DNA of 64,000 bases. It comes from Chloroflexota bacterium (GTDB lineage: Bacteria > Chloroflexota > Limnocylindria > P2-11E). This document shows, one piece after another, positions 12,125 to 29,450 of the stretch. Position numbers and translations under genes: made by a program. The notes beneath the pieces were generated by a model. That model had not been told where the DNA came from. It worked only from the letters and a program-made list of their open reading frames with translations, and made no database searches. The stretch spans positions 7,214 through 71,213 of the forward strand of contig VBFI01000049.1 of the NCBI GenBank assembly GCA_005889275.1, read 5' to 3'. The first letter of the stretch is position 1, and each line of letters opens with the position of its first letter.

Positions 12125-13849
12125 CTATTTCTTGATCCACCACTCGTGCACGTTCCAGTCGCCGTTCGGGCTGAACGAGCCCGTGAGGACTCCCCGCATC
12201 CTCGCGTCGAGGGCGAGGATCCGGTTGTCGGAGACCCCGAACATGTACGGCACGTCGTCGTTCAGGATCTTGTTCATCTGCTGGTAGACGCTCTGACGCG
12301 CCGCCTGCGTGCAGTCGGGCCCGTTCCGCCCCTGGTCGATCAGCTTGTCGACGGCGGGGTTGTTGTAGCCGACGAAGTTGTTCCCCGCCTTGGTGGGGCT
12401 CGCGACGTTGCTCGAGTGCCAGATCGTGAACGGGTCGGGATCGGCCGAGAGCTGCCAGCCGATGATCACGGCCTCGACCTCGGGGGATCCGCCCGTGAGC
12501 TTCGGGACGAGCGCGGTGAAGTCCTCGAGCTTCGGCGTGATCTTCACGCCGATCTGCTTGTACTGCTCGACGGCGACCTGCAGGAAGGTCTCGCGGGTCT
12601 TGTTGCCCTGGTTCGTCACGATCGTGATCGCCAGCGGCTTGCCGTCCTTCGCGTAGAAGCCGTCGGAGCCCTTCGTGTAGCCGGCCTGCTTGATCAGGTC
12701 CTCGGCCTTCGCCTTGTCGTACGTGTAGGCGTTCAGCTGGGCGGCCGGCGCCGACGCCCAGGCGGCCGGTGGGTGATGGGCGAGCTGCTTGGTGCCCTCG
12801 CCGAAGTACACCGCCTTCACGATCTCGTCGGTGTTGATGCCGTACGAGAGCGCCTGGCGAATCCGCTTGTCACCGAGGAACGCCACGTTCGCGTTGTTCG
12901 TCCGCCAACCGATGTACGTGTAGCCGTTGTTCGCCCACTTGTAGAGCTTCAGGTTGTCGGCCTTCGACAGATCGGCCACGTCGCTGGGCTGGATGAGGCC
13001 GGCGGTGACCTCGCCGGTCTTCAGCTGCGCCGCGAGCACGGTCGAGTCGGCGACCACCTTCTGCACCCACTCGTCGAGGAGCGGGACGCCCTTCCAGTAC
13101 GTGTCGTTGCGGCTGAGGATGACCTGGTCACCCTTCCGCCATTCCTTGAACTTGAACGGGCCGCTCGCCACCGGCGGGGCGTTGTTCTCGGCCGCCTCGT
13201 CCACGGTCTTCGAGGGGTCGTTGTCCACGGTGTACTTGCCGAAGATGTGCTCCGGCATCGGAGCCGCACCGAAGACGTTCGCGAGCGCCGGGCAGAAGAT
13301 CCGGGTGAACTTCACCGTGAACTTCTTGGGGTTCGCTGTATCGATCGTGATCCCGGAGATGCTCGTGGCCTTGCCGGTCGAATAGTCCTGGTATCCCTCG
13401 ACGTCGTTGAACACGCTCTTGTTCGGGGTGACCTTGCTGCGCCCCTGCATCTTCACCCGCGCGAGGAAGTCATTCGCGATGATCGGCTTGCCGTCGGACC
13501 AATTCGCCTTCGCGTCGATGGTCCAGCTGAACGTGAGGCCATCGGAGCTGACGGTCCAGCTGCCGAGCCACGGCTTGATCTCGCCCGTTTGGTAGTCGGC
13601 GATGATGAGCGAGTCGTAGATCTTGCCGCTCACTCGCGACGACGTCGCGTCGTTGGACGTCGCGGGATTCAGCCGCTGGATGTCCGCGAAGTCTCCGTAG
13701 ATGACCCGGCCACCGGCGACCGGCTTCTCGTCCGGCGCGGTGGTGCCCGTGGTCTGGCCTCCGCCGCCGGTCGGCGCGCACGCCGTCGCGATGAGCGTGA
13801 GCGCCGCGAGGCCCGCGATGAGGACACGGCTCGTGCGATGCTGCTGCAT
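12125..13849 (-). CDS. Family-5 SBP lipoprotein SBP2 (full length)
   Basis: 574 aa with lipobox LIATAC. Ends ...GDWNVHEWWIKK. Confidence 0.88.
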   Translation of the reverse strand: MQQHRTSRVLIAGLAALTLIATACAPTGGGGQTTGTTAPDEKPVAGGRVIYGDFADIQRLNPATSNDATSSRVSGKIYDSLIIADYQTGEIKPWLGSWTVSSDGLTFSWTIDAKANWSDGKPIIANDFLARVKMQGRSKVTPNKSVFNDVEGYQDYSTGKATSISGITIDTANPKKFTVKFTRIFCPALANVFGAAPMPEHIFGKYTVDNDPSKTVDEAAENNAPPVASGPFKFKEWRKGDQVILSRNDTYWKGVPLLDEWVQKVVADSTVLAAQLKTGEVTAGLIQPSDVADLSKADNLKLYKWANNGYTYIGWRTNNANVAFLGDKRIRQALSYGINTDEIVKAVYFGEGTKQLAHHPPAAWASAPAAQLNAYTYDKAKAEDLIKQAGYTKGSDGFYAKDGKPLAITIVTNQGNKTRETFLQVAVEQYKQIGVKITPKLEDFTALVPKLTGGSPEVEAVIIGWQLSADPDPFTIWHSSNVASPTKAGNNFVGYNNPAVDKLIDQGRNGPDCTQAARQSVYQQMNKILNDDVPYMFGVSDNRILALDARMRGVLTGSFSPNGDWNVHEWWIKK

Positions 13850-13851
13850 GC

Positions 13852-13895
13852 CCCTCTCCTGCTCCTTTTCCTGAGCGAGAACGTCGCGAGTCTAG
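13852..13895 (-). promoter_or_regulatory. Conserved 5' leader/RBS of SBP2 (copy of the SBP1a leader)
   Basis: See 10029-10075; about 40 nt near-identical. Confidence 0.4.
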
Positions 13896-13988
13896 GCAGG
13901 GCCCGCCCGCACGGCAGAACCCCCCACAGCTATACCGGCGGCCGGCCGGCCGCGTTCGGATGAAGCGGCGCGCGCGACCGCTTGCTGA

Positions 13989-15038
13989 CTAGGCGCCCGG
14001 GAAGTGGCAGGCAGCCCAGTGACGCGGCTCGTGCTCGATGAACTCGGGGTCCACCTCCGAGCAGATCTGCTGCGCCTTCCAGCAACGGGTGTGGAAACGG
14101 CAGCCGGATGGAGGGTTCACCGGTGATGGCACGTCGCCGGTGAGGATGATCCGCTTGCGCTTCGACTCGACCGCCGGGTCCGGGATCGGCACGGCGGAGA
14201 GGAGCGCCTGGCTGTACGGATGGAGCGGCCGCTCGTAGAGGTCGACGCGGTCGGCGAGCTCGACGATCTTGCCGAGATACATGACCGCGACGCGGTCGCT
14301 GATGTGGCGCACCACGGACAGGTCGTGGGCGATGAACAGGTATGTGAGCTTGAACCGGTCCTGCAGCTCCTCGAGCAGGTTGATGACCTGCGCCTGGATG
14401 GAGACGTCGAGCGCGGAGATCGGCTCGTCGCACACGATGAACTCGGGCTCGACCGCGAGCGCGCGGGCGATCCCGATCCGCTGCCGCTGGCCGCCGGAGA
14501 ACTCGTGCGGGTAGCGGTTCGTGAAGTACGGGTTGAGACCGACGACGCGGAGGAGCTCCTGCACGCGTTCGGTCTTCTCGTGGCCCTTCGCGAGGTTGTG
14601 CACCTCGAGAGGCTCTCCGATGATGTTCCCGACGGTCATCCGCGGGTTCAGCGAAGCGTACGGGTCCTGGAAGATCATCTGCAGCCGGCGGCGCATCTTG
14701 CGCATCTGCTCGCCACCGAGCTTCGTCAGCTCGACGCCGTCGAAGACCACCGCGCCGGCGGTGGGCTTGTAGAGCTGGAGGATCGCGCGGCCGGTCGTGG
14801 ACTTGCCGCAGCCGGACTCGCCGACCAGACCGAGCGTCTCGCCCTTCTCGACGAAGAAGTCGATCCCGTCGACGGCGCGGACGGCGCCGACCTGACGCTG
14901 GAAGATGATCCCCTGCGTGAGCGGGAAGTGCATCTTGAGCGCCTTCACCTCGAGCAGGTTCTTCCCGCTTCCCGCGGTCGCGGTGCTTCGGACGCGCGTG
15001 AACTCCGCGTCCGAGGGCGGTGGTGTCGTTACGGCCAT
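13989..15038 (-). CDS. Oligopeptide/dipeptide ABC transporter ATP-binding protein, DppF/OppF type
   Basis: 349 aa. Walker [10 protein letters not shown], signature [15 protein letters not shown], and an oligopeptide C-terminal domain with CRFHTRC. Confidence 0.88.
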
Positions 15039-15050
15039 TGCTGCACCCCT

Positions 15051-16181
15051 CTAGTTCACCGGCGACGGCGGCGGGAGCGGCGGCTCCTCACCGTCCTTCT
15101 TCGTTTCGGCCGGAAGATCCGCGACTTCCTTCTTGATCTCCTCGATCACGCGGGTATCGCCGATCTCACGATGCCAGTCGGTGTCCACGAGCCACCCGCC
15201 CTCCTGCGTCCCCCAGCAGCGCGCCTCGTGGTCGGGCTTGGCGTTCGGGATCCGCTTGAGCTCCGGCTCCTTCTCTTTGCAGACGTCGCGCCGGTACTGA
15301 CAGCGCGGCTCGAAACGGCACCCCGGCGGCGGGGCGATCAGGTCCGGGGGGAGACCCTCGATCGGGACCAGCTTCGCCTTGCGGTGTTCGTCGAGGCGTG
15401 GGATCGAGCGAAGGAGGCCCCATGTGTACGGCATCTTCGGGTTGGCGAAGAGCTCGGCGGTGTCCGCCTTCTCGACGATCTTGCCGCCGTACATGACGTG
15501 GATGCGCTGGGTCATGCCGGCGACGACCCCGAGGTCGTGGGTGATGAGGATGAAGGCCGTGCGGAATTCCCGCGCGAGGTTCTTCAGCAGGTCGAGGATC
15601 TGTGCCTGAATGGTGACGTCGAGGGCCGTCGTCGGCTCGTCGGCGAGGATCAGCTTGGGGTTGCACGAAAGGGCCATCGCGATCATGACGCGCTGACGCA
15701 TGCCCCCCGAAAACTGGTGGGGGTAGTCGTCGAGCCGCTTCTTCGCGCTCGGGATGCCGACGAGATCCAGCAGCTCGATGGTGCGCTTGCGGGCTTCGCT
15801 CTTGTCCATCTTGAGATGCAGCTCGAGCGCCTCGGAGATCTGCCGGCTGATCGTGAGCACCGGATTCAGGCTCGTCATGGGGTCCTGGAAGATCATCGCG
15901 ATGTTGTTGCCGCGGATGCCCCGGACCTCGTCGTCGTCCATCTTCAGGACGTCCTGACCGTCGAAGACGATCGATCCTTCCGTGATCCGCCCAGGCGGCT
16001 GCGGGATGAGGCGCATGAGCGAGAGCGCGGTGACCGACTTCCCGCAGCCGGATTCGCCGACGAGGCCGAGCGTCTCGCCGGCCTCGAGGTGGAACGTCAC
16101 GCCGTCGACGGCGTGCACCACGCCGTCGCGCGTGAAGAACTGCGTGTGCAGGTCCTTGACGTCTAAGAGCTGCTGGGCCAC
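15051..16181 (-). CDS. Oligopeptide/dipeptide ABC transporter ATP-binding protein, DppD/OppD type, with a C-terminal extension of about 55 aa
   Basis: 376 aa. [32 protein letters not shown]; then an extra tail ...WLVDTDWHREIGDTRVIEEIKKEVADLPAETKKDGEEPPLPPPSPVN. Confidence 0.85.
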   Translation of the reverse strand: MAQQLLDVKDLHTQFFTRDGVVHAVDGVTFHLEAGETLGLVGESGCGKSVTALSLMRLIPQPPGRITEGSIVFDGQDVLKMDDDEVRGIRGNNIAMIFQDPMTSLNPVLTISRQISEALELHLKMDKSEARKRTIELLDLVGIPSAKKRLDDYPHQFSGGMRQRVMIAMALSCNPKLILADEPTTALDVTIQAQILDLLKNLAREFRTAFILITHDLGVVAGMTQRIHVMYGGKIVEKADTAELFANPKMPYTWGLLRSIPRLDEHRKAKLVPIEGLPPDLIAPPPGCRFEPRCQYRRDVCKEKEPELKRIPNAKPDHEARCWGTQEGGWLVDTDWHREIGDTRVIEEIKKEVADLPAETKKDGEEPPLPPPSPVN

Positions 16182-16226
16182 CGCTCCCCACCGCCCCGCC
16201 AGAATTCCGCGCAGTCTAGCAACGCT

Positions 16227-17189
16227 TTAGATCTTCATCCGTGGATCGAGGGCGTCCCGGAGGCCGTCGCCGACGAAGGTGAAGGCCAGCAGGATGATCG
16301 AGATGCAGAAAGCCGGGAGCAGAACCGGCCACGGCGTCGCCTGGAAGACGATGAATCCTTCGTTGATCATCGCGCCCCAGGTGGGCGTCGGAGGCCGTAC
16401 CCCGATCCCGAGGAAGGAGAGCGTCGCCTCGGTCAGCATGGCGCCCGGGATGGCGAACGCGAGCGAAACGATCACCGGGGCGAGCACGTTCGGGAAGAGG
16501 TGCCGGATCATGATCCGCACCGGGGTCGCGCCGATGGCCCGAGCCGCTTCGATGAACTCGCGGTGTTTCAGCGAGAGCACTTGACCGCGAATGAGCCGGG
16601 CGAGGCCGACCCAGTTCACGATCGCGAGCGCCACGAAGATGAGGAGGAGCCCGTCCATGGCCGTCCCGAGCTCCGTCCCGCGGAGCGTCGCGACGATGAT
16701 GATCACGAAAAGGAGATCGGGGAACGCGTAGATGATGTCGGTGAAGCGCATGAGGAGGTTGTCGACCCAACCGCCGACGTAGCCCGAGACCATGCCGATG
16801 CTCGCTCCGACGACGAAGATCACCGCGACGGGGACGAATCCGACGATGAGGCTCACGCGCGTCCCGTACATGAGCCGGGTCAGGATGTCCCGGCCAAGCT
16901 CGTCCGAACCGAGGAGATAGCCGGAGTCGGTGAACTGGCTACCGAACCACCTCGTCCAGATGGGCTCCATGAGCTGCTTCGGAGTGTTTTGCTGGATCGG
17001 GGAGTACGGGGCGATGATCGGGGCGAAGATCGCGACGAACGCGGCGAAGACGATCACCGCGAGCCCGGCGATCGCCGCCCGATTACGAAAGAGGCGCCAT
17101 ACCGCGTCGCGCCAGAGGGACCGCTGCTTGCGGGCGGCCAGATCGTGCTGGGCGGCCTGTCTGCGGGTGCTGACCGCCGTCGTCGCCAT
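16227..17189 (-). CDS. Peptide/nickel ABC permease, DppC/OppC type (C3)
   Basis: 320 aa. Permease signature AIVNWVGLARLIRGQVLSLKHREFIEAARAIG. Confidence 0.88.
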   Translation of the reverse strand: MATTAVSTRRQAAQHDLAARKQRSLWRDAVWRLFRNRAAIAGLAVIVFAAFVAIFAPIIAPYSPIQQNTPKQLMEPIWTRWFGSQFTDSGYLLGSDELGRDILTRLMYGTRVSLIVGFVPVAVIFVVGASIGMVSGYVGGWVDNLLMRFTDIIYAFPDLLFVIIIVATLRGTELGTAMDGLLLIFVALAIVNWVGLARLIRGQVLSLKHREFIEAARAIGATPVRIMIRHLFPNVLAPVIVSLAFAIPGAMLTEATLSFLGIGVRPPTPTWGAMINEGFIVFQATPWPVLLPAFCISIILLAFTFVGDGLRDALDPRMKI

Positions 17190-18145
17190 CAGCTGACCTT
17201 GATCCGCGGGTCGAGCGCGCCGTACACGATGTCGACGGTGATGTTCGCGATCATGATCACGAAGGCGTAGAGCAGCGTCGTCGACATGATCATCGGATAG
17301 TCGCGCTGGTTGATGCTGATGACGTACAGCCGGCCGATGCCCGGCACGTTGAAGAGCGATTCGATGATGAACGATCCGGTGATGAGGCCCGCGGTGGCCG
17401 GCCCGATGATCGTGGCCACCGGGATGAGCGCGTTCTTGAGCGCGTGCCCGACGATGACCGACTGCTCCCGCAGGCCCTTCGCGCGCGCGGTCCGCACGTA
17501 GTCCTGGCGGATCGCCTCGAGCATGCTCGCCCGCGTGATGCGGGTGAGGAACGCGCCCGGCGCGAGCGCGAGAACGAACGTGGGCATGACCATGTGCTGC
17601 CAGGTGCCCCAGCCGACGAACGGCAGGAGGTGCAGCGACGCGCCGAGGACGTAGATGAGGAAGATGGCGGTGACGAAGCTCGGAATCGTCGTACCGATCG
17701 TCGCGATCAGCAGGCTCAGATAGTCGAGCGGCGTGTTCTGCTTCAGGGCGCTGACGATGCCGAGCGGGATCGAGAACGCGAGGGCCACGATGAGGGCCTG
17801 GACGCCGAGCTGCGCGGTCGTTCCGATCCCCTGTCCGATGAGGTCGACGACGGGTCGTCCGCGAGTGAAGCTCAGGCCGAGATCACCGCGGAGAAGGTTC
17901 CCGATGTAGTCGACGAACTGGACCGGTATCGGCTGGTCGATGCCGTAGTAGCGGTTGATCTTGTCGAGCTGCTCCTGCGGGAGCGGGCGATTCTCGTTGC
18001 GATCGAAGGGACTCCCGGGTGCGAGGTGCGCCAGCGAGAAGGTGATGAGCGCGACGAAGAACATCGTCGGAATGATCAGGAGGAGTCGGCGAATGACGTA
18101 TCTGAGCACTGCCTTGAGTCCGAGTGTATAGCCCGAAACGTCCAA
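17189..18145 (-). CDS. Peptide/nickel ABC permease, DppB/OppB type (B3)
   Basis: 318 aa, ...VLRYVIRRLLLIIPTMFFVALITFSLAHLAPGSPF.... Confidence 0.88.
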   Translation of the reverse strand: MDVSGYTLGLKAVLRYVIRRLLLIIPTMFFVALITFSLAHLAPGSPFDRNENRPLPQEQLDKINRYYGIDQPIPVQFVDYIGNLLRGDLGLSFTRGRPVVDLIGQGIGTTAQLGVQALIVALAFSIPLGIVSALKQNTPLDYLSLLIATIGTTIPSFVTAIFLIYVLGASLHLLPFVGWGTWQHMVMPTFVLALAPGAFLTRITRASMLEAIRQDYVRTARAKGLREQSVIVGHALKNALIPVATIIGPATAGLITGSFIIESLFNVPGIGRLYVISINQRDYPMIMSTTLLYAFVIMIANITVDIVYGALDPRIKVS

Positions 18146-18209
18146 AGTGCGTCGTGCAAAACAAAAGGGGCCGGCTCGCGCCGGCCCCTTTTTGTCGACT
18201 CGAAGAGCG

Positions 18210-19973
18210 TTAGGTCTTCTTCGTCACGTAGACGTCGGTGAATCGCGCGATCTCGAACCCGAGGGCGGTGATGTAGTAGTTCTTCACCCACGGCTTCTGG
18301 AGGATCTTCGTCGCGCCGTAGTAGATGAACGCCGCGGCGGCGTCCTGCGAGAGGAGCCGCGACGCCTGCTGGTACATGTCGTCGCGCTTCTTGGAGTCGC
18401 CTTCTTTGTCCGCCGCGAAGACCAGGTCGTCGAACTGCTTGCTGGTGTAGCCAACACGACCTGATGAGGCCTTCGAAGAGAAGACCGTCGTCAGCCAGTC
18501 CTGCTGGTCGTAGTAGTCCGGGCACCAGCCGAGAAGGAACATGAGCGGGAGCGTCTCGGGCTTCTTGACCAGCTGCGTGAACGTGGTGGAGTCGACCGGG
18601 TCGAGCGTGATGTTGGCGTTCAGGTTGGTCTTCCACTGCTGCTGGAACCACTCGAGACGCGTCTTGTTCCGGGCGTTCGCGGAGTAGGTGATCTTCACGT
18701 CGGCGAGGGCGGCCGTCGCCGCCGGTGCCGCCTGCGCGAGCGCCGCCTTCGCGGCGGCCGGGTCGAACTTCTGGAAGGTGTCGCCGGCGTCGTAGCCCGG
18801 GAGACCGGGTGAGATGAAGGAAGTCGACGGCTTGCCGATCTTCTGGACGTCGTTGATGTACGCGTCGCGGTCGAAGGACTTCGCGAACGCGACGCGGACG
18901 TTCTTGTCGTTGAACGGAGCCTTGCGGTTGTTGAAGCCGACGTAGTAGCTGCAGCCGTCCGGGCCGTCCACGACCTGCTTCTTGAGGTCGGCGTCGCCGT
19001 CGATCGTGCGGAGGTCTTCCGCGGCCACGCCGTAGAGATCGATCTCGTTGTTGCGGTACGCGGCGAAGGCGACCGCGCCCTCGGTGATCATGACGACGGT
19101 CCACTTCGCGAGCTTGGTCGGGGTCCGGTAGTTCGGGTTGCGGGTAAAGACCATCTTCTCGTTGTGCTTCCACTCGCTGAGGACGAAGGGACCGTTGCCG
19201 ATGAACGTCGCGGGCTCGGTCCACTTGTCGCCACCCTTGGTGACGGTGTCCTCACGAGCTGGTGCGCCGACCCAGATGCTCGCGATCGCGTTGAAATACG
19301 GCGCCGGGTCGGTGAGCTTGAAGGTGATGTCGTTGCCGCTGACGGTGATGTTGCTCAGGAAGTCCGTCTTCGCGGATGCGAGCTTCGCCGGGTCGTCCTT
19401 CTTCGGGTCCATCGAGTTCCAGGCTTCGCAGCCCGCGACGATGTAACCGGTGAAGGCGTACTCACCCGCGGTCGCCGGGTCGCAGAGGCGCTGCCACCCG
19501 TACTTGAAGTCGTTCGCGGTGATCGCCTTGCCGTCCGAATACTTGAGACCGTCGCGGAGCGTGTACGTGTAGGTCTTCCCGTCCGCACTGATCTTCGGCT
19601 GGTCCTTCGCCGCGGCGGGAATCACCTTGCCCGTCTTCACATCGGCCGTCATGAGCGCCTCGAAGACCCTCATGGTGACGCCGATCTCGTCGACGAACGA
19701 CTCCTTTTGCGGGTCGATGGTGTCGGGCTCGCCGCCCACGCGGGTGGTGAGCTCGCCGTTCGGGTCCGCCTGGTCCGTCCCGCCGCCGGTGCTGGGGCCG
19801 CCGCCCTGCTGCGTGCAGGCGCTGACGACGAGTCCCAGGAGCGTCAGGAGGGTCAGGAGCGGAAGGATGCGACTGCGACTTGCGGTCAAGATCCGCCTCC
19901 CTCTCTCTTCTCGTTTGGGTTTGCGCGAATTCTGGGCCATTGTCAGTACCGACGCCACCCGGGACGGGTTCAT
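18210..19973 (-). CDS. Family-5 SBP lipoprotein SBP3
   Basis: Start MNPSRVASVLTMAQNSRKPK...LLTLLTLLGLVVSAC (lipobox). The ATG at 19973-19971 overlaps the SBP4 stop as ATGA. The longer track ORF is read-through. Confidence 0.8.
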   Translation of the reverse strand: MNPSRVASVLTMAQNSRKPKREERGRRILTASRSRILPLLTLLTLLGLVVSACTQQGGGPSTGGGTDQADPNGELTTRVGGEPDTIDPQKESFVDEIGVTMRVFEALMTADVKTGKVIPAAAKDQPKISADGKTYTYTLRDGLKYSDGKAITANDFKYGWQRLCDPATAGEYAFTGYIVAGCEAWNSMDPKKDDPAKLASAKTDFLSNITVSGNDITFKLTDPAPYFNAIASIWVGAPAREDTVTKGGDKWTEPATFIGNGPFVLSEWKHNEKMVFTRNPNYRTPTKLAKWTVVMITEGAVAFAAYRNNEIDLYGVAAEDLRTIDGDADLKKQVVDGPDGCSYYVGFNNRKAPFNDKNVRVAFAKSFDRDAYINDVQKIGKPSTSFISPGLPGYDAGDTFQKFDPAAAKAALAQAAPAATAALADVKITYSANARNKTRLEWFQQQWKTNLNANITLDPVDSTTFTQLVKKPETLPLMFLLGWCPDYYDQQDWLTTVFSSKASSGRVGYTSKQFDDLVFAADKEGDSKKRDDMYQQASRLLSQDAAAAFIYYGATKILQKPWVKNYYITALGFEIARFTDVYVTKKT

Positions 19974-21547
19974 CGGGCGAACGTCCAGCGATATACGTTC
20001 CACGAGAGCGGGGCCGAGGAGGGCGGTGGCTGAAGATCCGCGAGCGCCTGCGGGGCGACGTCGACCCGGAGCTCTTGATAGAGCGGCAGCGCGGGGAGGA
20101 CCGAGGCCCAGAGCCGCTCCATCTCGGCGTAGATCGCGCGCTTTTCGCCGCGGTCGGGCGCGGCGACCGCCGCCGACGCGAGGACGTCGAACCATGGATC
20201 GACGAGGCCGGCCCAGCGTTCGGAGGCGAGGCGCGGATCCGCTGCGTCCTCCGGAGCGATCGCGAGATCGAAGCGCCCGGTGGCGATGTCCGAGCGCAGG
20301 TCGGCAAGCGATCGCTCGCGGACATCCGCGGCGATCCCGACCGCGGCGAGGTCGCCGGCGACACGCCGGGCGACGTCCGTGCGGGCGACCGATCCCGCGG
20401 CGACGAGCACGGTGGCGGTCATCCGCTCGCCTGCCCGCTCGAGGATGCCGAACTGGCCCTTTGTGAATCCGGCTCCGGCGAGCAACGCGCGCGCGCGGTC
20501 GCGGTCCGGGGCGACGGCCGGCACGGTCTCGTCGGCCGATGCCCAGAGCGGGGGCAGAAGGTAGGTGCGTGGTACGAGGGCCCGTCCGACGAAGACATCA
20601 TCGACGATCGACTTCCGGTCCACGGTGAGCTCGACCGCCTTACGAACGCTCGCGTCGCCGAAGCGTTTGGGATCGGCGCCGAACCGGAGCACTTCGAGCG
20701 CCTCCGCGGGCTTGTAGTACGCCTGGAGGCGCGTGCCGTCGGCGAACCGGTCGAGCGTCTTCGCGAGATCCGCTTCGAGGACCGGCCACGGAACGAGGTC
20801 GACGTCGCCGCGGAGCAGCGCCTGCAGCGCCGCGGCACGCGTCGGGAGGAAATGGATCTCGATGCGTCCGAGCCCGGGCGCGCCGAGCGCATACGACTTG
20901 AACGACGAGAGCGTGATGTTCCCCGGCAGCCACGCGGCGATCGCGAAGGGGCCGGCATGGACCGGCTCGCGCGCGTACGCCGCGAGTTGCGGCGCCGTCG
21001 CGCCCAAAAGACGGTGCCGCGGGAGCACGCGTGGACCGAGCGCGTAGTCGTCCCACCGCTCGCCGTCGCGGTAGAGCACCCGAAGGTCGCGCGGTCCGAG
21101 CACCTCGACACGATCGATGCGGTCGGCGTTCCAGCGGAGCGCCGTTCCCGGCGCTTCCTGCGAGTCCCGCTCCCACGCGAAGCGCACGTCGGACGCGGTG
21201 ATCGCCTCGCCGTCCTGCCAGGTCGCGTCGCGCAAACGGAATGTCGCGACGAGACGTCCGCTCGGGGCGGTCGGGTCGTCGGTCACCACCCGGAGGGCGC
21301 CGTTCTCGAGCGTGGGCACGGACTCGGCGAGCCGCGGCACGAGCTCGTCGTGCTCGTCACGGACGACCAGCGTTTCGGTCACGGCCGCCGCGAGAAAACG
21401 CGCGGACGGGTCGTCGTCGAACACCGTGCGCGGCTCGCCGACCAGCCCGACGACGAGGTCACGCCGCGGCGGAGGCGTCGAGGCGCACGCCGTCCCGAGG
21501 ACGATGCCGAGAGCGACGACGTACGCGGCGCGCGCGGTGGAGATCAG
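19970..21547 (-). CDS. Family-5 SBP lipoprotein SBP4; start uncertain (no canonical start codon ahead of the signal peptide)
   Basis: Mature part ...LISTARAAYVVALGIVLGTACASTPPPRRDLVVGLVGEPRTVFDDDPSARF.... The only codon that gives a signal peptide is CTG at 21547-21545, which overlaps the anti-sigma TGA as CTGA. Confidence 0.6.
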   Translation of the reverse strand: MISTARAAYVVALGIVLGTACASTPPPRRDLVVGLVGEPRTVFDDDPSARFLAAAVTETLVVRDEHDELVPRLAESVPTLENGALRVVTDDPTAPSGRLVATFRLRDATWQDGEAITASDVRFAWERDSQEAPGTALRWNADRIDRVEVLGPRDLRVLYRDGERWDDYALGPRVLPRHRLLGATAPQLAAYAREPVHAGPFAIAAWLPGNITLSSFKSYALGAPGLGRIEIHFLPTRAAALQALLRGDVDLVPWPVLEADLAKTLDRFADGTRLQAYYKPAEALEVLRFGADPKRFGDASVRKAVELTVDRKSIVDDVFVGRALVPRTYLLPPLWASADETVPAVAPDRDRARALLAGAGFTKGQFGILERAGERMTATVLVAAGSVARTDVARRVAGDLAAVGIAADVRERSLADLRSDIATGRFDLAIAPEDAADPRLASERWAGLVDPWFDVLASAAVAAPDRGEKRAIYAEMERLWASVLPALPLYQELRVDVAPQALADLQPPPSSAPLSWNVYRWTFAR

Positions 21548-22122
21548 CGCGGTGTGGCGGTCGGGTTGGTGACGATCTCCACCTGTTCGACTTCGACGTC
21601 GTAGCGTCCGCCCGCCGGAAGCCGGACCGTGCTGCGGACGATGACGGGCGCGCCTGCCGCGGCGGTCTGCGCGCGCAGCCAACGGAAGTAGTCGATGCTC
21701 GTGTCGTCGACGGGTGGCTGCGCCCGGAAGTAGTCGCGGATCACCGAGTGTGGCGCCGGCGCCGCCGTCTGCTGCTCGACCGATCCGGTCAGGGCGAAGA
21801 GCGCCACGCCGAGGGCGACCGAGACCTCGGCGAAGCGCGCGAAGAGCGCCGGTGCGCGAAGCCAGGTCGTCGGCTCTTCGCGTCGGCTGCCCAGGGCGGC
21901 GAGACGCACTCGGCCAGGGGCGACCGCGGCACGCTGCGACCGCAGGGGCGCGAAGGCGCGCTCGAGCGCGCGGTCGATGGCGACTGCGTCGCGGAGGGCT
22001 TCGGCGCAGTCGAGGCACGTCGCGGCGTGCGCCTCGAGATCAAGGCGCTCGCGCACCGACAGCGAGCCGGTCGCGCCGGCGTACGGGACCACTGACGTGC
22101 AACCGCGAGCGAAGATCCTCAT
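21544..22122 (-). CDS. Anti-sigma factor, ZAS family (H-X3-C-X2-C) with one TM helix
   Basis: MRIFARGCTSVVPYAGATGSLSVRERLDLEAHAATCLDCAEALRDAV...VSVALGVALFALTGSV. The ATG overlaps the sigma stop as ATGA. Confidence 0.75.
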   Translation of the reverse strand: MRIFARGCTSVVPYAGATGSLSVRERLDLEAHAATCLDCAEALRDAVAIDRALERAFAPLRSQRAAVAPGRVRLAALGSRREEPTTWLRAPALFARFAEVSVALGVALFALTGSVEQQTAAPAPHSVIRDYFRAQPPVDDTSIDYFRWLRAQTAAAGAPVIVRSTVRLPAGGRYDVEVEQVEIVTNPTATPR

Positions 22123-22784
22123 TCGTCCTCGATGGGCACCGGCGCCGTTATCGGCTTGGCCCTGCGAAATCCTGTAGCCGGTGCGGGCCGGCTCGGTTCG
22201 ATCCCGAGCTCGGGATGTGCCGCAAGATGCGTTCGGAGTCGGCGCAGGGCGTAGTGCAGCCGGGACTTCACGGTGCCGACGGGGCAATCCACCACCTCGG
22301 CGATCTCCGCGAGGTTGAGCCCGTTCAGGTAATGGAGGACGACGACGATCCGGTGCTTGGGTCCGAGCGCGTCGACGGACTGGAGCACGAAGCGCCGGAG
22401 CTCGGCTTGCTCGGCGATGCTCGGCGGCGATCCCTCGTCGTTCGCGAAGGTGTCGCCCGCCGCCTCCTCGAGGGACGACAGGATCACGTTCTTTCGGGGC
22501 CGCCGGTTGTACGAGAGGTTCACCGCGACGCGGTAGAGCCACGGCCGAAGGGAATTGTCCGGCTCGAGGCGCGCGAGCGCGCGGTGCGCTCGGGTGAACG
22601 TGTCGACGACGATCTCTTCCGCCGCGGAGGGATCCTTGGTGATCGCGAGCCCGAGGCGAAAGATCCCGTCCCGATACCGGTAGAAGAGTGCGTCGAAGGC
22701 GAGCATCTCCCCGGTCCGCGCCGCGTACACGAGCTCGCGGTCGCTGCGCTCTTCGCCCGAGATACCTTGCTTCGCGGCCTTCAT
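22119..22784 (-). CDS. ECF (sigma-70 family group 4) RNA polymerase sigma factor
   Basis: MKAAKQGISGEERSDRELVYAARTGEMLAFDALFYRYRDGIFRLGLAITKDPSAAEEIVVDTFTRAHRAL (region 2) ... LNGLNLAEIAEVVDCPVGTVKSRLHYALRRL (region 4). The ATG overlaps the NlpC/P60 stop as ATGA. Confidence 0.85.
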   Translation of the reverse strand: MKAAKQGISGEERSDRELVYAARTGEMLAFDALFYRYRDGIFRLGLAITKDPSAAEEIVVDTFTRAHRALARLEPDNSLRPWLYRVAVNLSYNRRPRKNVILSSLEEAAGDTFANDEGSPPSIAEQAELRRFVLQSVDALGPKHRIVVVLHYLNGLNLAEIAEVVDCPVGTVKSRLHYALRRLRTHLAAHPELGIEPSRPAPATGFRRAKPITAPVPIEDE

Positions 22785-23620
22785 CCCCCGCCCACCTCCG
22801 GTACCGGCGGAAGGTAGCGGCGGATCGCGCTCAGCGTGCGATCGCCACCGAGCTGTCCCCGCTCCACGACGCCACCGCTCATCGGTGCGTGGAGGAAGTC
22901 GCGCGCGCCGGTCGCCAGGGCGACGTGTGTCACGGACTCGGCGCCGAAGAAGAGGAGATCGCCCGGTGCGGCGTCCTCCACCTTCGTACCGAGCGTGGCC
23001 TGCTGATCCGCGTCTCGCGGCAGGGACAACCCGTTCAAACGGTACACCTGCTGCACGAAACCGGAACAGTCCATGCCACGGGCGGTCGTCCCACCCCACA
23101 GGTACGGAGCTCCGATGAACGCCTCGGCCGTGCGGAGAAGATCGGAGGGGGTCGGATACCCGTGCGGCACGTCGACGAGGGCGGCGACGTGCTCCCCGGA
23201 GATGAAACCGGTTCGCTCGCCCCGGTCGCCCAGGATGCTCACCTCGAGCCAACCGCCGAGCGGGGACGGCGCCGGGACGAGACCGCCGGCCCCGGTCGAG
23301 AGGCGCGTCTCGGGGACGAGCGCGCCGCACGGGAGCTCCGCGATCACCGCCGACGCCGGCGCGGGACGCTCGCGCACCGGCGCGAGGATGACGGTCACGA
23401 CCGCGTTCCGTCCGTACTTCGTGAACTGGTAGAGCGACGCGCGCGTGCACCAACCGAAGTAGAGATCCTCTCCCTGCACGTAGCGCCAGTCCCCTTCCGC
23501 CCCGAGGACGCGCACGTGCTCGCCCCAGTGCGCCTGATCGACGAGCTCGGCGTCGTGACCCGGGGACGCGCGAAGATCGACGAGGGCCTGGCGAACGACC
23601 GCCCGGTGCGGCCAGGTCAT
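22781..23620 (-). CDS. NlpC/P60 (C40) peptidoglycan peptidase with an N-terminal SH3b-like domain
   Basis: MTWPHRAVVRQALVDLRASPGHDAELVDQAHWGEHVRVLGAEGDWRYVQGEDLYFGW ... GAPYLWGGTTARGMDCSGFVQQVYRLNGLSLPRDADQQATLGTKVEDAAPGDLLFF...THVALATG (Cys and His of the catalytic triad). Confidence 0.8.
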   Translation of the reverse strand: MTWPHRAVVRQALVDLRASPGHDAELVDQAHWGEHVRVLGAEGDWRYVQGEDLYFGWCTRASLYQFTKYGRNAVVTVILAPVRERPAPASAVIAELPCGALVPETRLSTGAGGLVPAPSPLGGWLEVSILGDRGERTGFISGEHVAALVDVPHGYPTPSDLLRTAEAFIGAPYLWGGTTARGMDCSGFVQQVYRLNGLSLPRDADQQATLGTKVEDAAPGDLLFFGAESVTHVALATGARDFLHAPMSGGVVERGQLGGDRTLSAIRRYLPPVPEVGGG

Positions 23621-23643
23621 CGCCACCTTCGTGGTGGGCCGTA

Positions 23644-25158
23644 CTAGACCGGTCGCTGCCACCTGAGGACCGGCTTTCGCGCGGCGGTGACCTCGTCCAG
23701 CCGCGCGAGCGGCGTGTACTTGGGCGCGGCCTTCACCGAGGCGGGATCGCTCTCCGCGCGTTCGGCGATCCGCTTCATCGCCGCCGCGAACGCGTCGAGG
23801 GTCTCGCGCGGCTCGGTCTCGGTCGGCTCGATCATCATCGCCTCGGCCACGATGAGGGGGAAGTACACGGTCGGGGAGTGGAAGCCTTCGTCGAGGAGCG
23901 CCTTCCCGATATCGAGCGCGCTCGCACCTTGCCGCTTCTGTTTCGCGGCCGACAGAACGAACTCGTGCATCGGGGTCCGGTCGTACGCGACGTCGTACTT
24001 GTCCCGGAGCAGCGCGAGCAGGTAGTTCGCGGCGAGGATCGCGTCGCGCCCCGTCTCCAGCATGCCGTCTTCGCCCAGCGTCTTCATATAGGTGTAGGCG
24101 CGCACGAGGACACCGAAGTTCCCGATGCGCTGCTTGATCGTGCCGATCGAGTCGCCGAGCCCGGCGGGCGCCCGGTCCTCCCGCGCGGTGTCGTAGTGGT
24201 ACGAGCCGTCGGCCTCGCGAACGATCCACGGCTTCGGCAGGAAGGGACGGAGATGCGCCTTCACGCAGAGCGGCCCCGCGCCCGGACCGCCGGCGCCATG
24301 GGGAGTCGAGAACGTCTTATGGACGTTGATATGGACGCAGTCGAAGCCGAGATCACCCGGGCGGGCAATACCGAGGAGCGCGTTCATGTTCGCGCCGTCG
24401 CCGTACACGAGCGCGCCCGCGCCGTGCACAGCGTCGCAGACCTCACGCACGCGCTCCTCGAAGAGACCGAGCGTGTTCGGATTCGTCAGCATGAAGCCCG
24501 CGACGTCGGGTCCCAGCGCGCTCTTCAGCGCGTCGAGGTCGACGTTGCCGCGCGCGTCGCTCTTCACGGTCGTGACCTGGTAGCCGCACATCGCCGCGGA
24601 CGCGGGGTTCGTCCCATGCGCGGAGTCGGGGACGATGATCCGCCGCCGCGTCGCGGCCTCGCCTCGTTTCGCGTGGTAGGCCTTGAACACGAGCAGCGCG
24701 GTGAACTCCGATTGCGCACCGGCCTGCGGTTGCAGGCTCACGAAATCCATGCCGGTGATCTTCGCCAGCATCTGCTCGAGCTCGTACGCGAGCGCGAGGA
24801 CACCCTGGGTCGTGCGATACGACTGACGCGGATGCAGGTCGGCGAACAGTGAAGCGACGCGATCGTTCACCTTCGGGTTGTACTTCATCGTGCATGAGCC
24901 GAGCGGATACATCCCGGCATCCACCGAATAGTTCAGCTGCGCGAGGTGCGTGTAGTGGCGCACGACCTGCGGCTCCGTGAGCTCGGGGAGGTGCAGCGGT
25001 GTCTTGCGCTGGAATGCAGCGGGGATGTCGGCCGCGTCGTCCGAGACCACGTGCCGACCGCTCCGCCCCGGCCGCGCGAGCTCGAAGAGGAGCGGCTCGA
25101 GCGCCGGCACCGCCGTCTTGGCGCCGACGTCGGGGATCACATGCGTACGGACCGTCAT
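23644..25158 (-). CDS. gcvPB: Glycine dehydrogenase (decarboxylating) subunit 2
   Basis: MTVRTHVIPDVGAKTAVPALEPLLFELARPGRSGRHVVSDD...YPLGSCTMKYNPKVN...; the ATG at 25158 overlaps the gcvPA stop. Confidence 0.88.
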   Translation of the reverse strand: MTVRTHVIPDVGAKTAVPALEPLLFELARPGRSGRHVVSDDAADIPAAFQRKTPLHLPELTEPQVVRHYTHLAQLNYSVDAGMYPLGSCTMKYNPKVNDRVASLFADLHPRQSYRTTQGVLALAYELEQMLAKITGMDFVSLQPQAGAQSEFTALLVFKAYHAKRGEAATRRRIIVPDSAHGTNPASAAMCGYQVTTVKSDARGNVDLDALKSALGPDVAGFMLTNPNTLGLFEERVREVCDAVHGAGALVYGDGANMNALLGIARPGDLGFDCVHINVHKTFSTPHGAGGPGAGPLCVKAHLRPFLPKPWIVREADGSYHYDTAREDRAPAGLGDSIGTIKQRIGNFGVLVRAYTYMKTLGEDGMLETGRDAILAANYLLALLRDKYDVAYDRTPMHEFVLSAAKQKRQGASALDIGKALLDEGFHSPTVYFPLIVAEAMMIEPTETEPRETLDAFAAAMKRIAERAESDPASVKAAPKYTPLARLDEVTAARKPVLRWQRPV

Positions 25159-26513
25159 CGCGCGGCCACCGTCTCTGGTGAACGCGCGAGCTGCGCGACG
25201 GCGTCGACGAGGGCGTCCGCGTCCGCTTCGCTGGTGAGCTCGGTGCACTGCGCGATCACGTCGTCCCGACCCTCGCGGCGTCCATCGACGTAATGCGACG
25301 CGGTCGCTTCGACCTGGATCCCGCGCGCGATGAGCGCGTTCCGCAGATCCCATCCCCCGATCTCGGTGCGCAGCGTGAAGCGATCGAAGAACGGACCTTC
25401 GTTTGCGATCGCGCAGCCCGGGAGCGCGGCGAGACGCTTCGCGAGCGCGTGCGCGCGCGCGACGCCGGCTCGCGCCGCGGCGCGGAGGCCCTCCGGACCG
25501 AGGAGCGAGAGGTACACGGCGGCCGTTATCGCGGCGAGCGCCTCGTTCGTGCAGATGTTGCTCGTCGCCTTCTCGCGGCGGATGTGCTGCTCACGCGTCT
25601 GGAGCGTGTTCACGAATCCGCGGGTGCCGTTCGCGTCGAGTGTCTGGCCCGCGATGCGGCCGGGCATCTGGCGCACGAGCGATTCGCGACACGCGAAGAT
25701 CCCAAGATGCGGGCCGCCGTACGACATCGTGATGCCGAGCGGCTGGCCCTCGCCGACGGCGATGTCGACGCCGAGCGCGCCCGGCGGCTCGAGCAGCGCG
25801 TTCGCATGCGGCTCGGTGACCTGCACGCAGAGCGCGCCTGCGGCGTGCGCCGCGTCCGCGATCTGGCGAACGTCGACGAGCGAGCCGAACGCGTCGGGGT
25901 GCTGGACGATGAGGCAGGCCGCGTCCTCGGCGGATGCCGCGAGCTTCGCGGTCGGCACCTCGACGATCTCGAGCTCCGGCCCGCGGCCGTACGTACGCAG
26001 AGTGCGGCGGTAGGTGAAGTCGACCTCGGTCGCGACGACGACCTTCTTCCGCCCGGTCACCCGAACGGCCATGAACGCCGCTTCGGCCGTGGCCGAACCG
26101 CCGTCGTACATGGAGGAGTTCACGACTTCCATCGCGAGCAGCTCGGCGATGAGCGACTGGTACTCGAAGACCCCCTGGAGCGTGCCCTGACTGACCTCGG
26201 GCTGGTACGGCGTGTACGCGGTCAGGAATTCGCCGCGCAGGGCGAGCACGGGCACCGCGGCGGGGATGTAGCGGCGCTGGATCGGCCCGCCGATGAAGAA
26301 CGGACCCGAGCCGGCCGTTCGGTTCATCGCCGCGAGACGCTCGAGGTGGGCCTGCACCTCCATCTCGGAAAGACCCGAGGCAAGACCGAGCCTCGGGAAG
26401 CGAGCGTCCTTCGGGATCGCGGTGAGCAGGTCGTCGACGCTCCGGACGCCGATCCGCTCGAGCATCGCCGCTCGGTCTTCTTCGGTGTGCGGCGAGTACG
26501 GGTTCGCGTTCAT
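25155..26513 (-). CDS. gcvPA: Glycine dehydrogenase (decarboxylating) subunit 1
   Basis: MNANPYSPHTEEDRAAMLERIGVRSVDDLLTAIPKDARF...TAYTPYQPEVSQGTLQ...; ATG at 26513. Confidence 0.88.
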   Translation of the reverse strand: MNANPYSPHTEEDRAAMLERIGVRSVDDLLTAIPKDARFPRLGLASGLSEMEVQAHLERLAAMNRTAGSGPFFIGGPIQRRYIPAAVPVLALRGEFLTAYTPYQPEVSQGTLQGVFEYQSLIAELLAMEVVNSSMYDGGSATAEAAFMAVRVTGRKKVVVATEVDFTYRRTLRTYGRGPELEIVEVPTAKLAASAEDAACLIVQHPDAFGSLVDVRQIADAAHAAGALCVQVTEPHANALLEPPGALGVDIAVGEGQPLGITMSYGGPHLGIFACRESLVRQMPGRIAGQTLDANGTRGFVNTLQTREQHIRREKATSNICTNEALAAITAAVYLSLLGPEGLRAAARAGVARAHALAKRLAALPGCAIANEGPFFDRFTLRTEIGGWDLRNALIARGIQVEATASHYVDGRREGRDDVIAQCTELTSEADADALVDAVAQLARSPETVAAR

Positions 26514-26632
26514 GCCGGGTCTCCGGCCCTCGGCCGCAAGACGCGCACATGGCTGGTGGTCTCGCTCGTCGCGGCCAGGGGAAGGGGCCCCTGAGCGCGA
26601 AGCGCCACGCTCCTCGCTCGTTCCACCCTTGA

Positions 26633-27037
26633 CTAATCCGCTCCGGCGCCGGCGGTCTCGCCGATATGCGAGCGGTAGTCGGCTGGAGAAAGGAGCTTCG
26701 CGAGCTCGCCTTTGTCGGCGAGGCGGACCTTGACCATCCAGCCGTCGCGGTAGGGGTCCGTGTTCACGAGCTCGGGGCTCTCGATGACTTTGACGTTCCG
26801 CTCCAGGACCTCGCCAGAGATCGGCGCGTAGATGTCGGACGCGGCCTTCACCGATTCGACCACGCCGAGGCTCGAGTACTGGCGCACCGTGGCGCCCTTC
26901 TCGGGAAGCTCGACGAAGACGACGTCTCCGAGCTGCTCCTGCGCGAAGTGCGTGATGCCGATCGTGGCCACGTCCCCGTCCGCACGCACCCACTCGTGCT
27001 CCTTGGAGTAGCGCAGATCGTCGGGAACGGTGCTCAC
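26633..27037 (-). CDS. gcvH: Glycine cleavage system H protein (lipoyl carrier)
   Basis: 134 aa, ...[21 protein letters not shown]... (lipoyl-Lys motif). Confidence 0.9.
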
Positions 27038-28155
27038 TCAGACCTCCGGTAAAAAGGCGTCTTCACTACCGTAGCGGGAACGTCCTTTCCGCGAATTCGG
27101 ACCCCGAGCGCGGTCCCCACCTTCGAGAGCGGCGTCGGGACGTAGGCGAGCGCGATGTTCCGGTCGACGGTCGGACCGTACGTGCCACTCGTCACCAGCC
27201 CGACGACCTCGCCGCCACTGGTGACCTCATGGCCATGGCGCGCGACCCCGCCTTCGACGACCAGGCCCGCGATCTTCCGTTTGGGGCCTTCGGCCTTCTT
27301 CGCCACGATCGCGTCGCGGCCGATGAAGTCCTTGTCCAGCTTGCACGTCCAACCGAGGCCGGCCTCGATCGGGTTCGTGGTCTCGTCGATGTCGTTGCCG
27401 TAGAGCGAGAAGCGCGCCTCCAGACGCAGTGTGTCGCGCGCCCCCAGGCCGATCGGCTTGAGCCCGGCGTCGCGTCCTGAAGCGAGCAGCGCGTCCCAGA
27501 CCGTGCTCGCGTCGTCGTTCGCCACGAAGATCTCGAATCCGTCTTCGCCCGTGTAGCCGGTCCGCGCGACGGTCGCGTTCACGACCCCGTGCCGATCGGG
27601 ATGGCCGAGGATGTGGCGCCGGGCGACTCCGAACGAGGCCAGTCCGCTCACAGCGGAACCCGTCTGGGCGTCCAGGATCTCCGCCGCGCGCGGCCCCTGC
27701 ACTGCGATGAGCGCCGTGGCGAGCGAGCGATCGTCGAACGCCGCGTCGTCGCCGAGCGACCGCAGGACGTGCGCGCGGTCCTTCGCGATGTTCGCCGCGT
27801 TCACGACCATGAGGAATTCCGTCTCGCCGGTGCGATACACGATCACGTCGTCCACGATCGTGCCGCCCTCGTTGCAGAGGAGGCCGTAGCGCGCCTCGCC
27901 GATCGCGAGTCCGGCGATGTCGCTCGAGACGAGGCGCTCGACGTCCGTCCGCGCGCCTTTCCCGGTGAAAAGGAATTCGCCCATGTGCGAGAGGTCGAAG
28001 AGGCCCGCGCGCGACCGCACGGTCCGGTGCTCGACGACGATGCCGTCGTACTGGATCGGCATCTCGTATCCGGCGAACGGGACCATCTTCGCGCCGAGCG
28101 CGACGTGCCGGTCATAGAGCGGGGTGCGCCGCAGCGTCGCCGCCTCGGTCGCCAT
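27034..28155 (-). CDS. gcvT: Glycine cleavage system T protein (aminomethyltransferase)
   Basis: [61 protein letters not shown]...; the 327 Arg-rich residues upstream in the track ORF are read-through. Confidence 0.88.
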
Positions 28156-28607: not shown

Positions 28608-28643
28608 CGGGTTTGAAGCCTCCCCGGAGTGTCGCGGTGGAGT

Positions 28644-29429: not shown

Positions 29430-29450
29430 CGGCGAAACTCTAATCCGCCG

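Follow-up and report, generated by a model that had tools for sequence, protein, structure and literature searches.

We describe a gene cluster from the class Limnocylindria (Chloroflexota) in which the gene of a YkfC-type peptidase is followed by those of an extracytoplasmic function (ECF) sigma factor, its anti-sigma factor, two solute-binding proteins (SBP4 and SBP3) and an Opp-type peptide importer. The cluster lies within a stretch of 64,000 nucleotides (nt) of contig VBFI01000049.1 (GenBank assembly GCA_005889275.1), here called the window, and all of the genes in question are on its minus strand, on which the junction sequences were read directly. The source is a soil member of the class, and the exact sigma protein is also found on several ENA soil-metagenome scaffolds from one population. 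The interpretation that we prefer, and to which we give an even chance, is that this is a cluster for the salvage of murein peptides and oligopeptides in which an ECF module is embedded, the binding-protein genes being its probable targets. The descriptive picture, comprising the YkfC-type peptidase, the Opp importer, the coupled ECF pair, the attachment to the glycine-cleavage (gcv) genes and the class-wide distribution, is well supported; the regulatory picture is one that we infer. All of the components are of known kinds, and the pairing of YkfC with Opp/Dpp is already known. The novelty lies in this particular combination, in a small family of anti-sigma factors that has an outer tail of its own, in a motif proposed as a promoter and in the conserved want of a normal start in SBP4. 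A full-text literature search found no description of this cluster.

The five genes from peptidase to SBP3 were first proposed in an initial annotation of the window. As judged by Pfam and sequence they are real and of the families assigned, and the peptidase ATG lies at 23620 as given. The peptidase (22781..23620; 279 amino acids (aa)) carries Pfam SH3_16 at 16-63 and NLPC_P60 at 170-252, that is, an N-terminal SH3b domain followed by a C-terminal NlpC/P60 domain, and no signal peptide is present in its sequence. Its best solved relatives are Bacillus cereus YkfC (BcYkfC, 3h41) and Bacteroides DPP VI (3pvq and 3npf), and positions 7-248 of a profile built from 22 homologues can be aligned to 3pvq residues 14-256 at E ~1e-29. 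Members of the YkfC subfamily are recognised by a Cys-His-His triad together with Tyr118, from strand beta-D of SH3b1, and Asp256 of the catalytic domain; Tyr118 and Asp256 bind the free amine of the N-terminal L-Ala, limiting the enzyme to free murein peptides (PMC2954226). Here, C185, H232 and H244 align to Cys238, His291 and His303 of BcYkfC, Y54 corresponds to Tyr118 (EEGYPGW vs EDLYFGW) and D203 to Asp256 (PRD). Y54, D203 and H232 are invariant in the 22-sequence alignment, whilst C185 and H244 are nearly so (at least 90%). The AlphaFold2 model of the peptidase (pLDDT 62.8) was too poor to bear out a second SH3b domain, and structures were compared by profile alignment. Moreover, several homologues are named gamma-D-glutamyl-L-lysine dipeptidyl-peptidase by JGI. 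YkfC enzymes without a signal peptide are cytoplasmic and act on Opp/Dpp-imported peptides in B. subtilis and Chlamydia (PMC2954226, PMC9928106). The initial annotation had regarded the protein as a cell-wall peptidase. The lack of a signal peptide, together with YkfC/DPP VI markers for free imported murein peptides (PMC2954226), argues instead that it is not a wall hydrolase, and we predict a cytoplasmic gamma-D-Glu-L-diamino-acid endopeptidase acting on free murein peptides.

The window also holds a complete Opp/Dpp (PepT-type) importer set of family-5 binding protein, two permeases and two ATPases. The translocator of this peptide ATP-binding cassette (ABC) importer is encoded by oppB, oppC, oppD and oppF (13989..18130), with Pfam matches to BPD_transp_1 (with BPD_transp_1_N or OppC_N) and, twice, to ABC_tran plus oligo_HPY. 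Pfam also bears out the five SBP_bac_5 genes counted earlier. SBP3 (18210..19889; 559 aa) is an OppA/DppE/MppA-like lipoprotein whose matches in the PDB, by overall similarity, are OppA (1b05, 1e-60), DppE (8ay0, 7e-54) and MppA (3o9p, 5e-48). A YkfC-type endopeptidase beside a family-5 binding protein and an Opp/Dpp importer is likewise seen in B. subtilis dppABCDE-ykfABCD, B. cereus ykfBC-oppA and Chlamydia YkfC with OppABCDF (PMC2954226, PMC9928106, PMC10009517), and the Tyr118, Asp256 and Cys-His-His residues of those systems are conserved here. In B. subtilis, DppE binds murein tripeptide (PMC10009517). Unlike those systems, the present cluster has an ECF pair between the peptidase and the binding proteins, places the peptidase at the 3′ end of the gcv genes and has five binding-protein genes. 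The E. coli set of mppA/mpaA/ycjG with OppBCDF is comparable in that an OppA paralogue shares the Opp translocator and gamma-D-Glu-diaminopimelate cleavage is cytoplasmic (PMC9928106, PMC10009517), and SBP3 matches MppA, as noted above. It differs in using the zinc carboxypeptidase MpaA where an NlpC/P60 cysteine peptidase is found here, and in being regulated by PgrR and not by an ECF sigma factor. A link between this cluster and muropeptide or peptide salvage is plausible, and that general idea of the initial annotation survives; the single ATGA-chained unit, the wall hydrolase and the redox sensor with which it was combined are not supported.

The sigma factor (22119..22784; 221 aa) is RpoE/AlgU-like and also SigE/SigW-like, with Pfam Sigma70_r2 at 34-96 and r4_2 at 135-183, and scores 82.5 bits against NCBIfam TIGR02937 (cutoff 42.9). 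It has domains 2 and 4 only, and its 221 aa compare with an ECF (group IV) length criterion of about 170-220 aa. In the PDB it is closest to AlgU (6in7) and E. coli sigmaE (1or7), at E ~4e-21. The helix of region 4.2, DCPVGTVKSRLHYA, is nearly identical to DCPVGTVRSRIFRA of E. coli sigmaE and likewise to the -35 recognition helix of AlgU. SigmaE and AlgU recognise a GGAAC/GAAC -35 element. Because its region 4.2 so closely resembles that of sigmaE, a GGAAC reader, a GAAC -35 element is plausible for this sigma factor.

The anti-sigma factor (21544..22122; 192 aa) is a class-I, zinc-associated anti-sigma (ZAS)-type protein with a single membrane pass. C8, H32, C36 and C39, which make up an upstream Cys and an HxxxCxxC motif and so the complete complement of putative zinc ligands, are invariant in both a 29-member and a 99-homologue set. 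There is no Pfam match at E<=0.01; zf-HC2 (PF13490) reaches 16 bits (cutoff 22.2, E 0.013), and the same model matches 28 of the 29 family members at E<=1 (best 2.8e-7). The best PDB match is RslA of Mycobacterium tuberculosis (3hug_B, E 0.0036), in which the motif aligns to EAHLAGCPEC. In the AlphaFold2 model the cytoplasmic helices (~13-64) are confident, residues 90-113 form a membrane helix and the tail (114-192) is of low confidence. This outer tail of ~79 aa is conserved among homologues, of which 113 were collected at 40-62% identity; all those named to an organism were Chloroflexota or Candidatus Limnocylindria. A profile of the anti-sigma factor found 306 matches at E<=1e-3 among 1.84 billion representatives, and few of these cover the tail, so the outer domain is specific to a small Limnocylindria family, with no detectable relative outside it. 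A weak match of the tail to the beta-gamma-crystallin fold (E 0.37) was discarded, the AlphaFold2 model there being helical or of low confidence. From the ZAS motif the initial annotation had derived redox or zinc sensing. The motif alone does not imply sensing, and the protein spans the membrane as RsiW and RslA do. Anti-sigma factors with a membrane span and an outer domain, such as these two, are controlled by proteolysis or ligands, whereas RsrA is a soluble redox sensor. The modelled topology thus argues, indirectly, against an RsrA-like soluble redox sensor. In several respects the pair resembles SigW-RsiW and M. tuberculosis SigL-RslA: a sigma factor of domains 2 and 4 only, an anti-sigma gene directly downstream with overlapping codons, HxxxCxxC with an upstream Cys, a single membrane helix and a -35 recognition helix near that of sigmaE. 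The view that such pairs are normally isolated two-gene units was too strong, since ECF groups are defined by conserved neighbourhoods, which often hold their target genes (PMC7826278).

Four ATGA overlaps were originally said to chain the five genes into one translational unit. Two of these stand. Peptidase and sigma factor meet at 22784-22781 in ATGA, the peptidase stop lying over the sigma ATG, and the overlap is ATGA or GTGA in 23 of 24 related loci (the other, L008, has a 1-nt overlap). Sigma and anti-sigma factor meet at 22122-22119, again in ATGA with GAGG before it, and this is kept in 25/25 loci. The third junction, anti-sigma/SBP4 (21547-21544), reads CTGA. At the fourth, ATGA is present at 19973-19970 in the region of the SBP4 stop, but its ATG is not the start of SBP3. 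A TTG ~80 nt past the SBP4 stop, with a conserved GGAGAGGGAGGCGG ribosome-binding site before it, is the conserved start of SBP3 in 18 relatives, and at least seven relatives have in-frame stops within the 80-nt stretch. SBP3 of the window therefore starts at TTG 19889, and the ATG at 19973 is coincidental. The gene caller on one source contig, L001, also gave an SBP3 of 559 aa. With a functional start over the stop at only two of four junctions, the genes are not chained as one translational unit. Nor are such overlaps telling in this genome. The window has a G+C content of ~70% and long spurious open reading frames (ORFs) in all six frames, and in a crude survey of it 4-nt NTGA overlaps were found at ~9-10 of 41 same-strand junctions and 1-nt overlaps at ~9 more. 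With NTGA at about a quarter of same-strand junctions, 4-nt overlaps are the default of the genome, are in no excess over chance and are by themselves uninformative.

The tblastn comparison of gene order took in long contigs from five distant relatives and 20 loci from GTDB species representatives; 19 of these 20 are titled Chloroflexi, Chloroflexota or Limnocylindria and one, the short contig L026, Candidatus Udaeobacter. Conservation of synteny, which had been suggested as a check, holds across the class. Every related locus with enough flank has the order (tsaD ...) HD-NUDIX-gcvT-gcvH-gcvPA-gcvPB-peptidase-sigma-anti-sigma-SBP4-SBP3-oppB-oppC-oppD-oppF-further binding protein, including the five distant relatives, in which anti-sigma identity is 41-56%. 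Insertions in the block occur upstream of HD or NUDIX and 3′ of oppF (GT4 in L007, a Na/H exchanger in L008, DUF6602 in L010), and none was seen between gcvPB and oppF among the loci compared.

The peptidase gene is not the head of the unit, as had been thought, since it follows gcvPB after 23 nt without a detectable promoter. Glycine dehydrogenase subunit 2 is encoded by gcvPB (23644..25158; Pfam GcvP2_C and GDC-P; 504 aa as called on the source contigs), which lies directly 5′ of the peptidase gene in 21/21 loci compared at that junction. The distance from the gcvPB stop to the peptidase ATG is the same 23 nt in most relatives; the peptidase start is ambiguous in four loci, three of them deep-branching (L007, L008, L031) and the fourth L013, where the codon aligned to Met1 of the window lies ~17-29 nt past the gcvPB stop. 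All that the spacer contains is a GAAGGTGG ribosome-binding site and, overlapping it, a small tetraloop hairpin (CCACC-ACGAA-GGTGG, 23623..23637). The relatives' hairpins at this place, compared by eye only, differ in sequence (CGAC-GCGG-GTCG, GGA-TTCG-TCC and similar). A promoter within the 3′ end of gcvPB was considered and rejected, the preceding 150 nt having coding-type conservation only. A candidate internal promoter before the sigma gene, GATC-N16-CGGTAC at 22826, was likewise rejected as not found in relatives. Because no promoter is visible before the peptidase or sigma genes, peptidase, sigma factor, anti-sigma factor and SBP4 would be co-transcribed with the glycine-cleavage genes from promoters further upstream, by read-through rather than autoregulation. 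An autoregulatory promoter upstream of the sigma operon is the usual hallmark of ECF systems, though not obligatory. In lacking a detectable one, in standing behind metabolic genes and in having its own outer tail, the pair differs from RpoE-, AlgU- and SigW-type pairs.

A search for ECF-type promoters, as first recommended, thus found none conserved before the peptidase, but it did yield candidates of the form GAAC-N16-CGGTA before SBP3, SBP2 and, with one mismatch, SBP1. The candidate -10 part of these is CGGTA and not the CGT or TCAAA of RpoE/AlgU/SigW-type systems. In an alignment of 18 loci, the 80-nt spacer between SBP4 and SBP3 (19890..19969) is strongly conserved and contains, in order, GAAC-N16-CGGTA (19971-19947, with GAAC over the SBP4 stop), ATGGCCCAGAAT (CAGAAT at 19934-19929) and a GGGAGG ribosome-binding site (19901-19896). 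Its consensus is CGcTGAACC-N15-CGGTAc-N5-ATGGCcCAGAAT, then the ribosome-binding site and TTG. Twenty-three loci have sequence across the spacer, and in 20 of them GAAC-N16-CGGTA precedes SBP3; the 16-nt spacing is fixed whilst the spacer sequence varies. In 13 related loci a copy also stands between oppF and the binding-protein gene that comes next, and three deep-branching loci, L007, L008 and L030, have one in front of oppB. Within the window there are three matches against 0.6 expected, and two precede binding-protein genes. Besides the copy before SBP3, GAAC-N16-CGGTATAG lies upstream of SBP2 (13930..13957, core 13957-13933; SBP2 at 12125-13849), and a one-mismatch copy, GAAC-N16-GGGTATAG, upstream of SBP1 (10124-10097). 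The third match (50611-50636), upstream of a molybdopterin oxidoreductase gene, was taken as chance given the expected 0.6. SBP1 and SBP2 have paralogous upstream regions (10097-10124 and 13889-13957, minus strand), each with GAAC-N16-sGGTATAG, ~38 nt, TGCCTAGACTCGCG, AGGAAAGGAGCAGGAG and the start; these binding-protein genes have evidently been duplicated together with their control regions. A consensus promoter and terminator scan reported no sigma-70 promoters and missed the conserved terminator described below, and was not relied on.

Between SBP3 and oppB, a G+C-rich hairpin with a T-run is present in 20/20 loci examined. In the window it reads AAAAAGGGGCCGGC-GCGA-GCCGGCCCCTTTT followed by GTTTT (18158..18193), folds at -34.6 kcal/mol (z = -4.1) and is a putative intrinsic terminator or attenuator; in 13 sequences, both bases have changed in compensation at 6 of its 13 pairs, and its tail is T-rich. 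Independent promoters and terminators, which would speak against a single unit, are thus in part present, as a promoter-like SBP4-SBP3 spacer and a covarying terminator before oppB. After the hairpin comes a conserved TATACACT box (18130-18123), 13 nt before GTG 18109. This GTG (MLRYVIRR...) is most likely the start of oppB, and not TTG 18145 of the longest ORF (region 18104-18145). With the box only 13 nt upstream of the GTG, the oppB transcript would be nearly leaderless and lack a ribosome-binding site.

These observations can be combined into a working scheme for the salvage cluster. An envelope-derived signal would act on the membrane anti-sigma factor and free the sigma factor, the trigger more likely acting at the outer tail, through regulated proteolysis or a bound ligand, than by redox sensing in the cytoplasm. 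The freed sigma factor would then start transcription at GAAC-N16-CGGTA before SBP3, SBP2 and SBP1, and before oppB in deep-branching relatives. Uptake of wall-derived and other peptides would rise, and the YkfC-like enzyme would split them. The hairpin after SBP3 may ensure that binding protein is made in large excess over translocator, an arrangement known from other ABC importer operons.

The scheme replaces that of the initial annotation, in which one translationally chained unit runs from peptidase to transporter under redox- or zinc-responsive ZAS control and the peptidase acts on the wall. The two true ATGA overlaps, the abutment of SBP4 on the anti-sigma stop, the invariant HxxxCxxC with its upstream Cys and the conserved gene order would all fit that scheme, but a third junction of CTGA, a fourth ATGA that is no start, a peptidase 23 nt behind gcvPB, a terminator after SBP3, a peptidase that has free-peptide specificity residues and no signal peptide, and a membrane-spanning anti-sigma factor with a conserved outer tail do not. 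We consider it very improbable, and the sequence has largely refuted it already.

The start of SBP4 (19970..21547) is unusual. The protein is a divergent family-5 binding protein with a lipoprotein-type signal peptide (Pfam SBP_bac_5, 157 bits); its PDB matches are distant only (2d5w, 1xoc) and it is the most divergent of the five. The gene follows the anti-sigma gene directly, without a spacer or ribosome-binding site, and the nearest canonical starts in its frame are TTG 21682, which is 139 nt upstream and inside the anti-sigma gene, and GTG 21424. In the window and ~20 relatives the signal peptide (an n-region Arg, a hydrophobic core and a Cys 17-20 codons past the stop) comes directly after the anti-sigma stop. 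Most relatives have no ATG, GTG or TTG able to yield this signal peptide, and in L012 the frame is open for 433 nt upstream without any. Of 21 loci with the reading frame intact, 17 have a CTG in frame, either on the anti-sigma stop itself (CTGA in the window, L012 and L028) or one nucleotide beyond it (TGA-N-CTG in 14 loci). SBP4 would therefore either start by re-initiation at a non-canonical codon, in the window perhaps CTG 21547, coupled to the anti-sigma gene, or overlap that gene by >100 nt, in the window perhaps from TTG 21682. A start at GTG 21424, chosen by the gene caller on 4 of the 5 ENA contigs of the source population that cover the whole of SBP4, was rejected, as it would delete the signal peptide, whose sequence and Cys are conserved in the translation upstream. 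Across loci the gene callers' starts for SBP4 are inconsistent and most remove the signal peptide. A fusion of anti-sigma factor and SBP4 by frameshift or read-through was also rejected; the relative frame varies (offset 1 in the window, L012 and L028, offset 2 in most) and a fusion would put the signal peptide in mid-protein. On L001 (11181-12761), a 526-aa ORF on the opposite strand was called in place of SBP4, a typical artefact of high G+C.

In a 13-locus subclade an in-frame ATG for SBP4 lies inside the anti-sigma gene, at -104/-101 in 12 loci and at -89 in L023. It arises from an Asp codon, GAT, in 12 of 13 (Asn AAT in L028), against a background GAT use of 25%. Before it stands TGGCTCAGACTC, near-invariant and exact in 9 of 13, within which are a rare AGA codon and CAGACT, similar to a -10 box; the CAGACT core is kept in 12 of 13 (CAGCCT in L023). 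The loci with this feature are L009, L010, L017-L019 and L021-L029, at ~89-135 nt before the anti-sigma stop, and the window is without it. It may represent an internal promoter with a long, RR-containing SBP4 leader.

The position of SBP4 also raises the idea that this lipoprotein serves as a co-sensor and not mainly in transport. Re-initiation at a non-canonical codon would keep its amount low and in fixed proportion to the anti-sigma factor, and once loaded with ligand it would contact the outer tail and release the sigma factor. SBP4 always stands directly after the anti-sigma gene, with an in-frame CTG within 0-2 nt of the stop in the 17 of 21 intact-frame loci; it is the most divergent binding protein and is parted from SBP3 and the transporter by the promoter-like spacer; and the outer tail is conserved and lineage-specific. 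Against this, the proposed contact is conjecture and the tail is modelled at low confidence, arrays of several binding proteins with one translocator are common, and the internal ATG with CAGACT could give SBP4 independent expression in the subclade. We therefore hold this role for SBP4 to be unlikely. Equally speculative, and with only a slim chance of being right, is the fuller form of the idea, in which the outer tail and SBP4 would sense extracellular wall-derived peptides and release the sigma factor to turn on the GAAC-N16-CGGTA promoters, giving a binding-protein-dependent ECF salvage route co-expressed with glycine catabolism.

Several points weigh against the interpretation as an ECF-driven salvage cluster. 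Neither of the partner genes ykfA (LD-carboxypeptidase) and ykfB (epimerase) was seen beside the peptidase gene or elsewhere among the window ORFs scanned, a few ORFs lying outside the scan. SBP3 is nearer to the generalist OppA than to MppA or DppE, which makes specificity for murein peptides no more than a possibility. Over the final 120-170 nt that lead up to the sigma and peptidase starts, relatives share no conserved bipartite motif. GAAC-N16-CGGTA could belong to another sigma factor or could be a housekeeping-type promoter, its CGGTA running into a -10-like TATAG/TATAC. The promoters, terminators and operon boundaries proposed here are drawn from sequence conservation, and the non-standard start of SBP4 also counts on this side. 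Lastly, the same 20-kb synteny includes clearly unrelated genes such as tsaD and rimI; since these are equally syntenic, conserved order is weak evidence of a functional link.

This last point leads to the main alternative, in which the genes are neighbours by descent, a general envelope-stress sigma pair having stayed in place within a slowly rearranging lineage without regulating the transporter, and the spacer motifs being of the housekeeping kind or those of another regulator. That the whole region, including the unrelated tsaE/B/D, rimI, HD, NUDIX and gcv genes, is syntenic in all loci would be expected in this case; so would 4-nt overlaps that are the genome default, the presence in spacers of other conserved TAnAnT -10-like boxes (CAGAAT, TAGACT, TACACT) and the failure to find an autoregulatory ECF promoter. 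Descent alone sits less easily with insertions that occur elsewhere in the block (L007, L008, L010) and never from gcvPB to oppF, with a GAAC -35-like element that fits the RpoE-like region 4.2, and with a motif of fixed 16-nt spacing before three binding-protein genes that is otherwise nearly absent from the window. We regard this alternative as possible but doubtful, and retain the salvage cluster with an embedded ECF module as the preferred interpretation.

Limnocylindria are an abundant uncultured lineage of soil and freshwater, thought to depend on external peptides (PMC13212565). If the proposed wiring is true, an ECF sigma factor would control cell-wall peptide uptake in this class, and the cluster would also provide a promoter motif open to testing, along with a small family of anti-sigma factors whose outer domain is new. 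The analysis further addresses three gene starts, those of SBP4, SBP3 and oppB, that are wrongly called by automatic annotation on high-G+C contigs, and indicates that ATGA overlaps in such genomes are not informative in themselves.

Some further features were noted upstream of the cluster. TAGAGTT (29436-29442, minus strand) is invariant 5-7 nt before the ATG of the HD gene in 17/17 loci, even where the upstream neighbour differs, which suggests the -10 box of a leaderless transcript and likely the head of a long unit. Upstream of NUDIX (28608-28646, minus strand) a TAGACT or TAAACT box is conserved. In most relatives it is followed by CTCCTCACGTTCCGGGAGGA, whose CUCC is able to pair with a GGAGG ribosome-binding site, and the window has a more diverged version, TCCACCGCGACACTCCGGGGAGGC; this element may be a translational hairpin. 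Rfam scans found no riboswitch in the whole window at the gathering threshold or in 17900-29600 at E<=1, with only sub-threshold noise, and hence no glycine riboswitch near the gcv genes. The gcvH-gcvPA spacer is 119 nt long in the window (26514-26632, minus strand) and contains an insertion that is missing from most relatives, where the gap is 11-13 nt. The insertion carries GAGCGAGGAGCG...GGGGCCCCT...CGACGAGCGAGACCACCAGCC and is present once in the window. L015, L011 and L017 have similar elements upstream of NUDIX, and this points to a small mobile repeat akin to repetitive extragenic palindromes (REP) or miniature inverted-repeat transposable elements (MITE).

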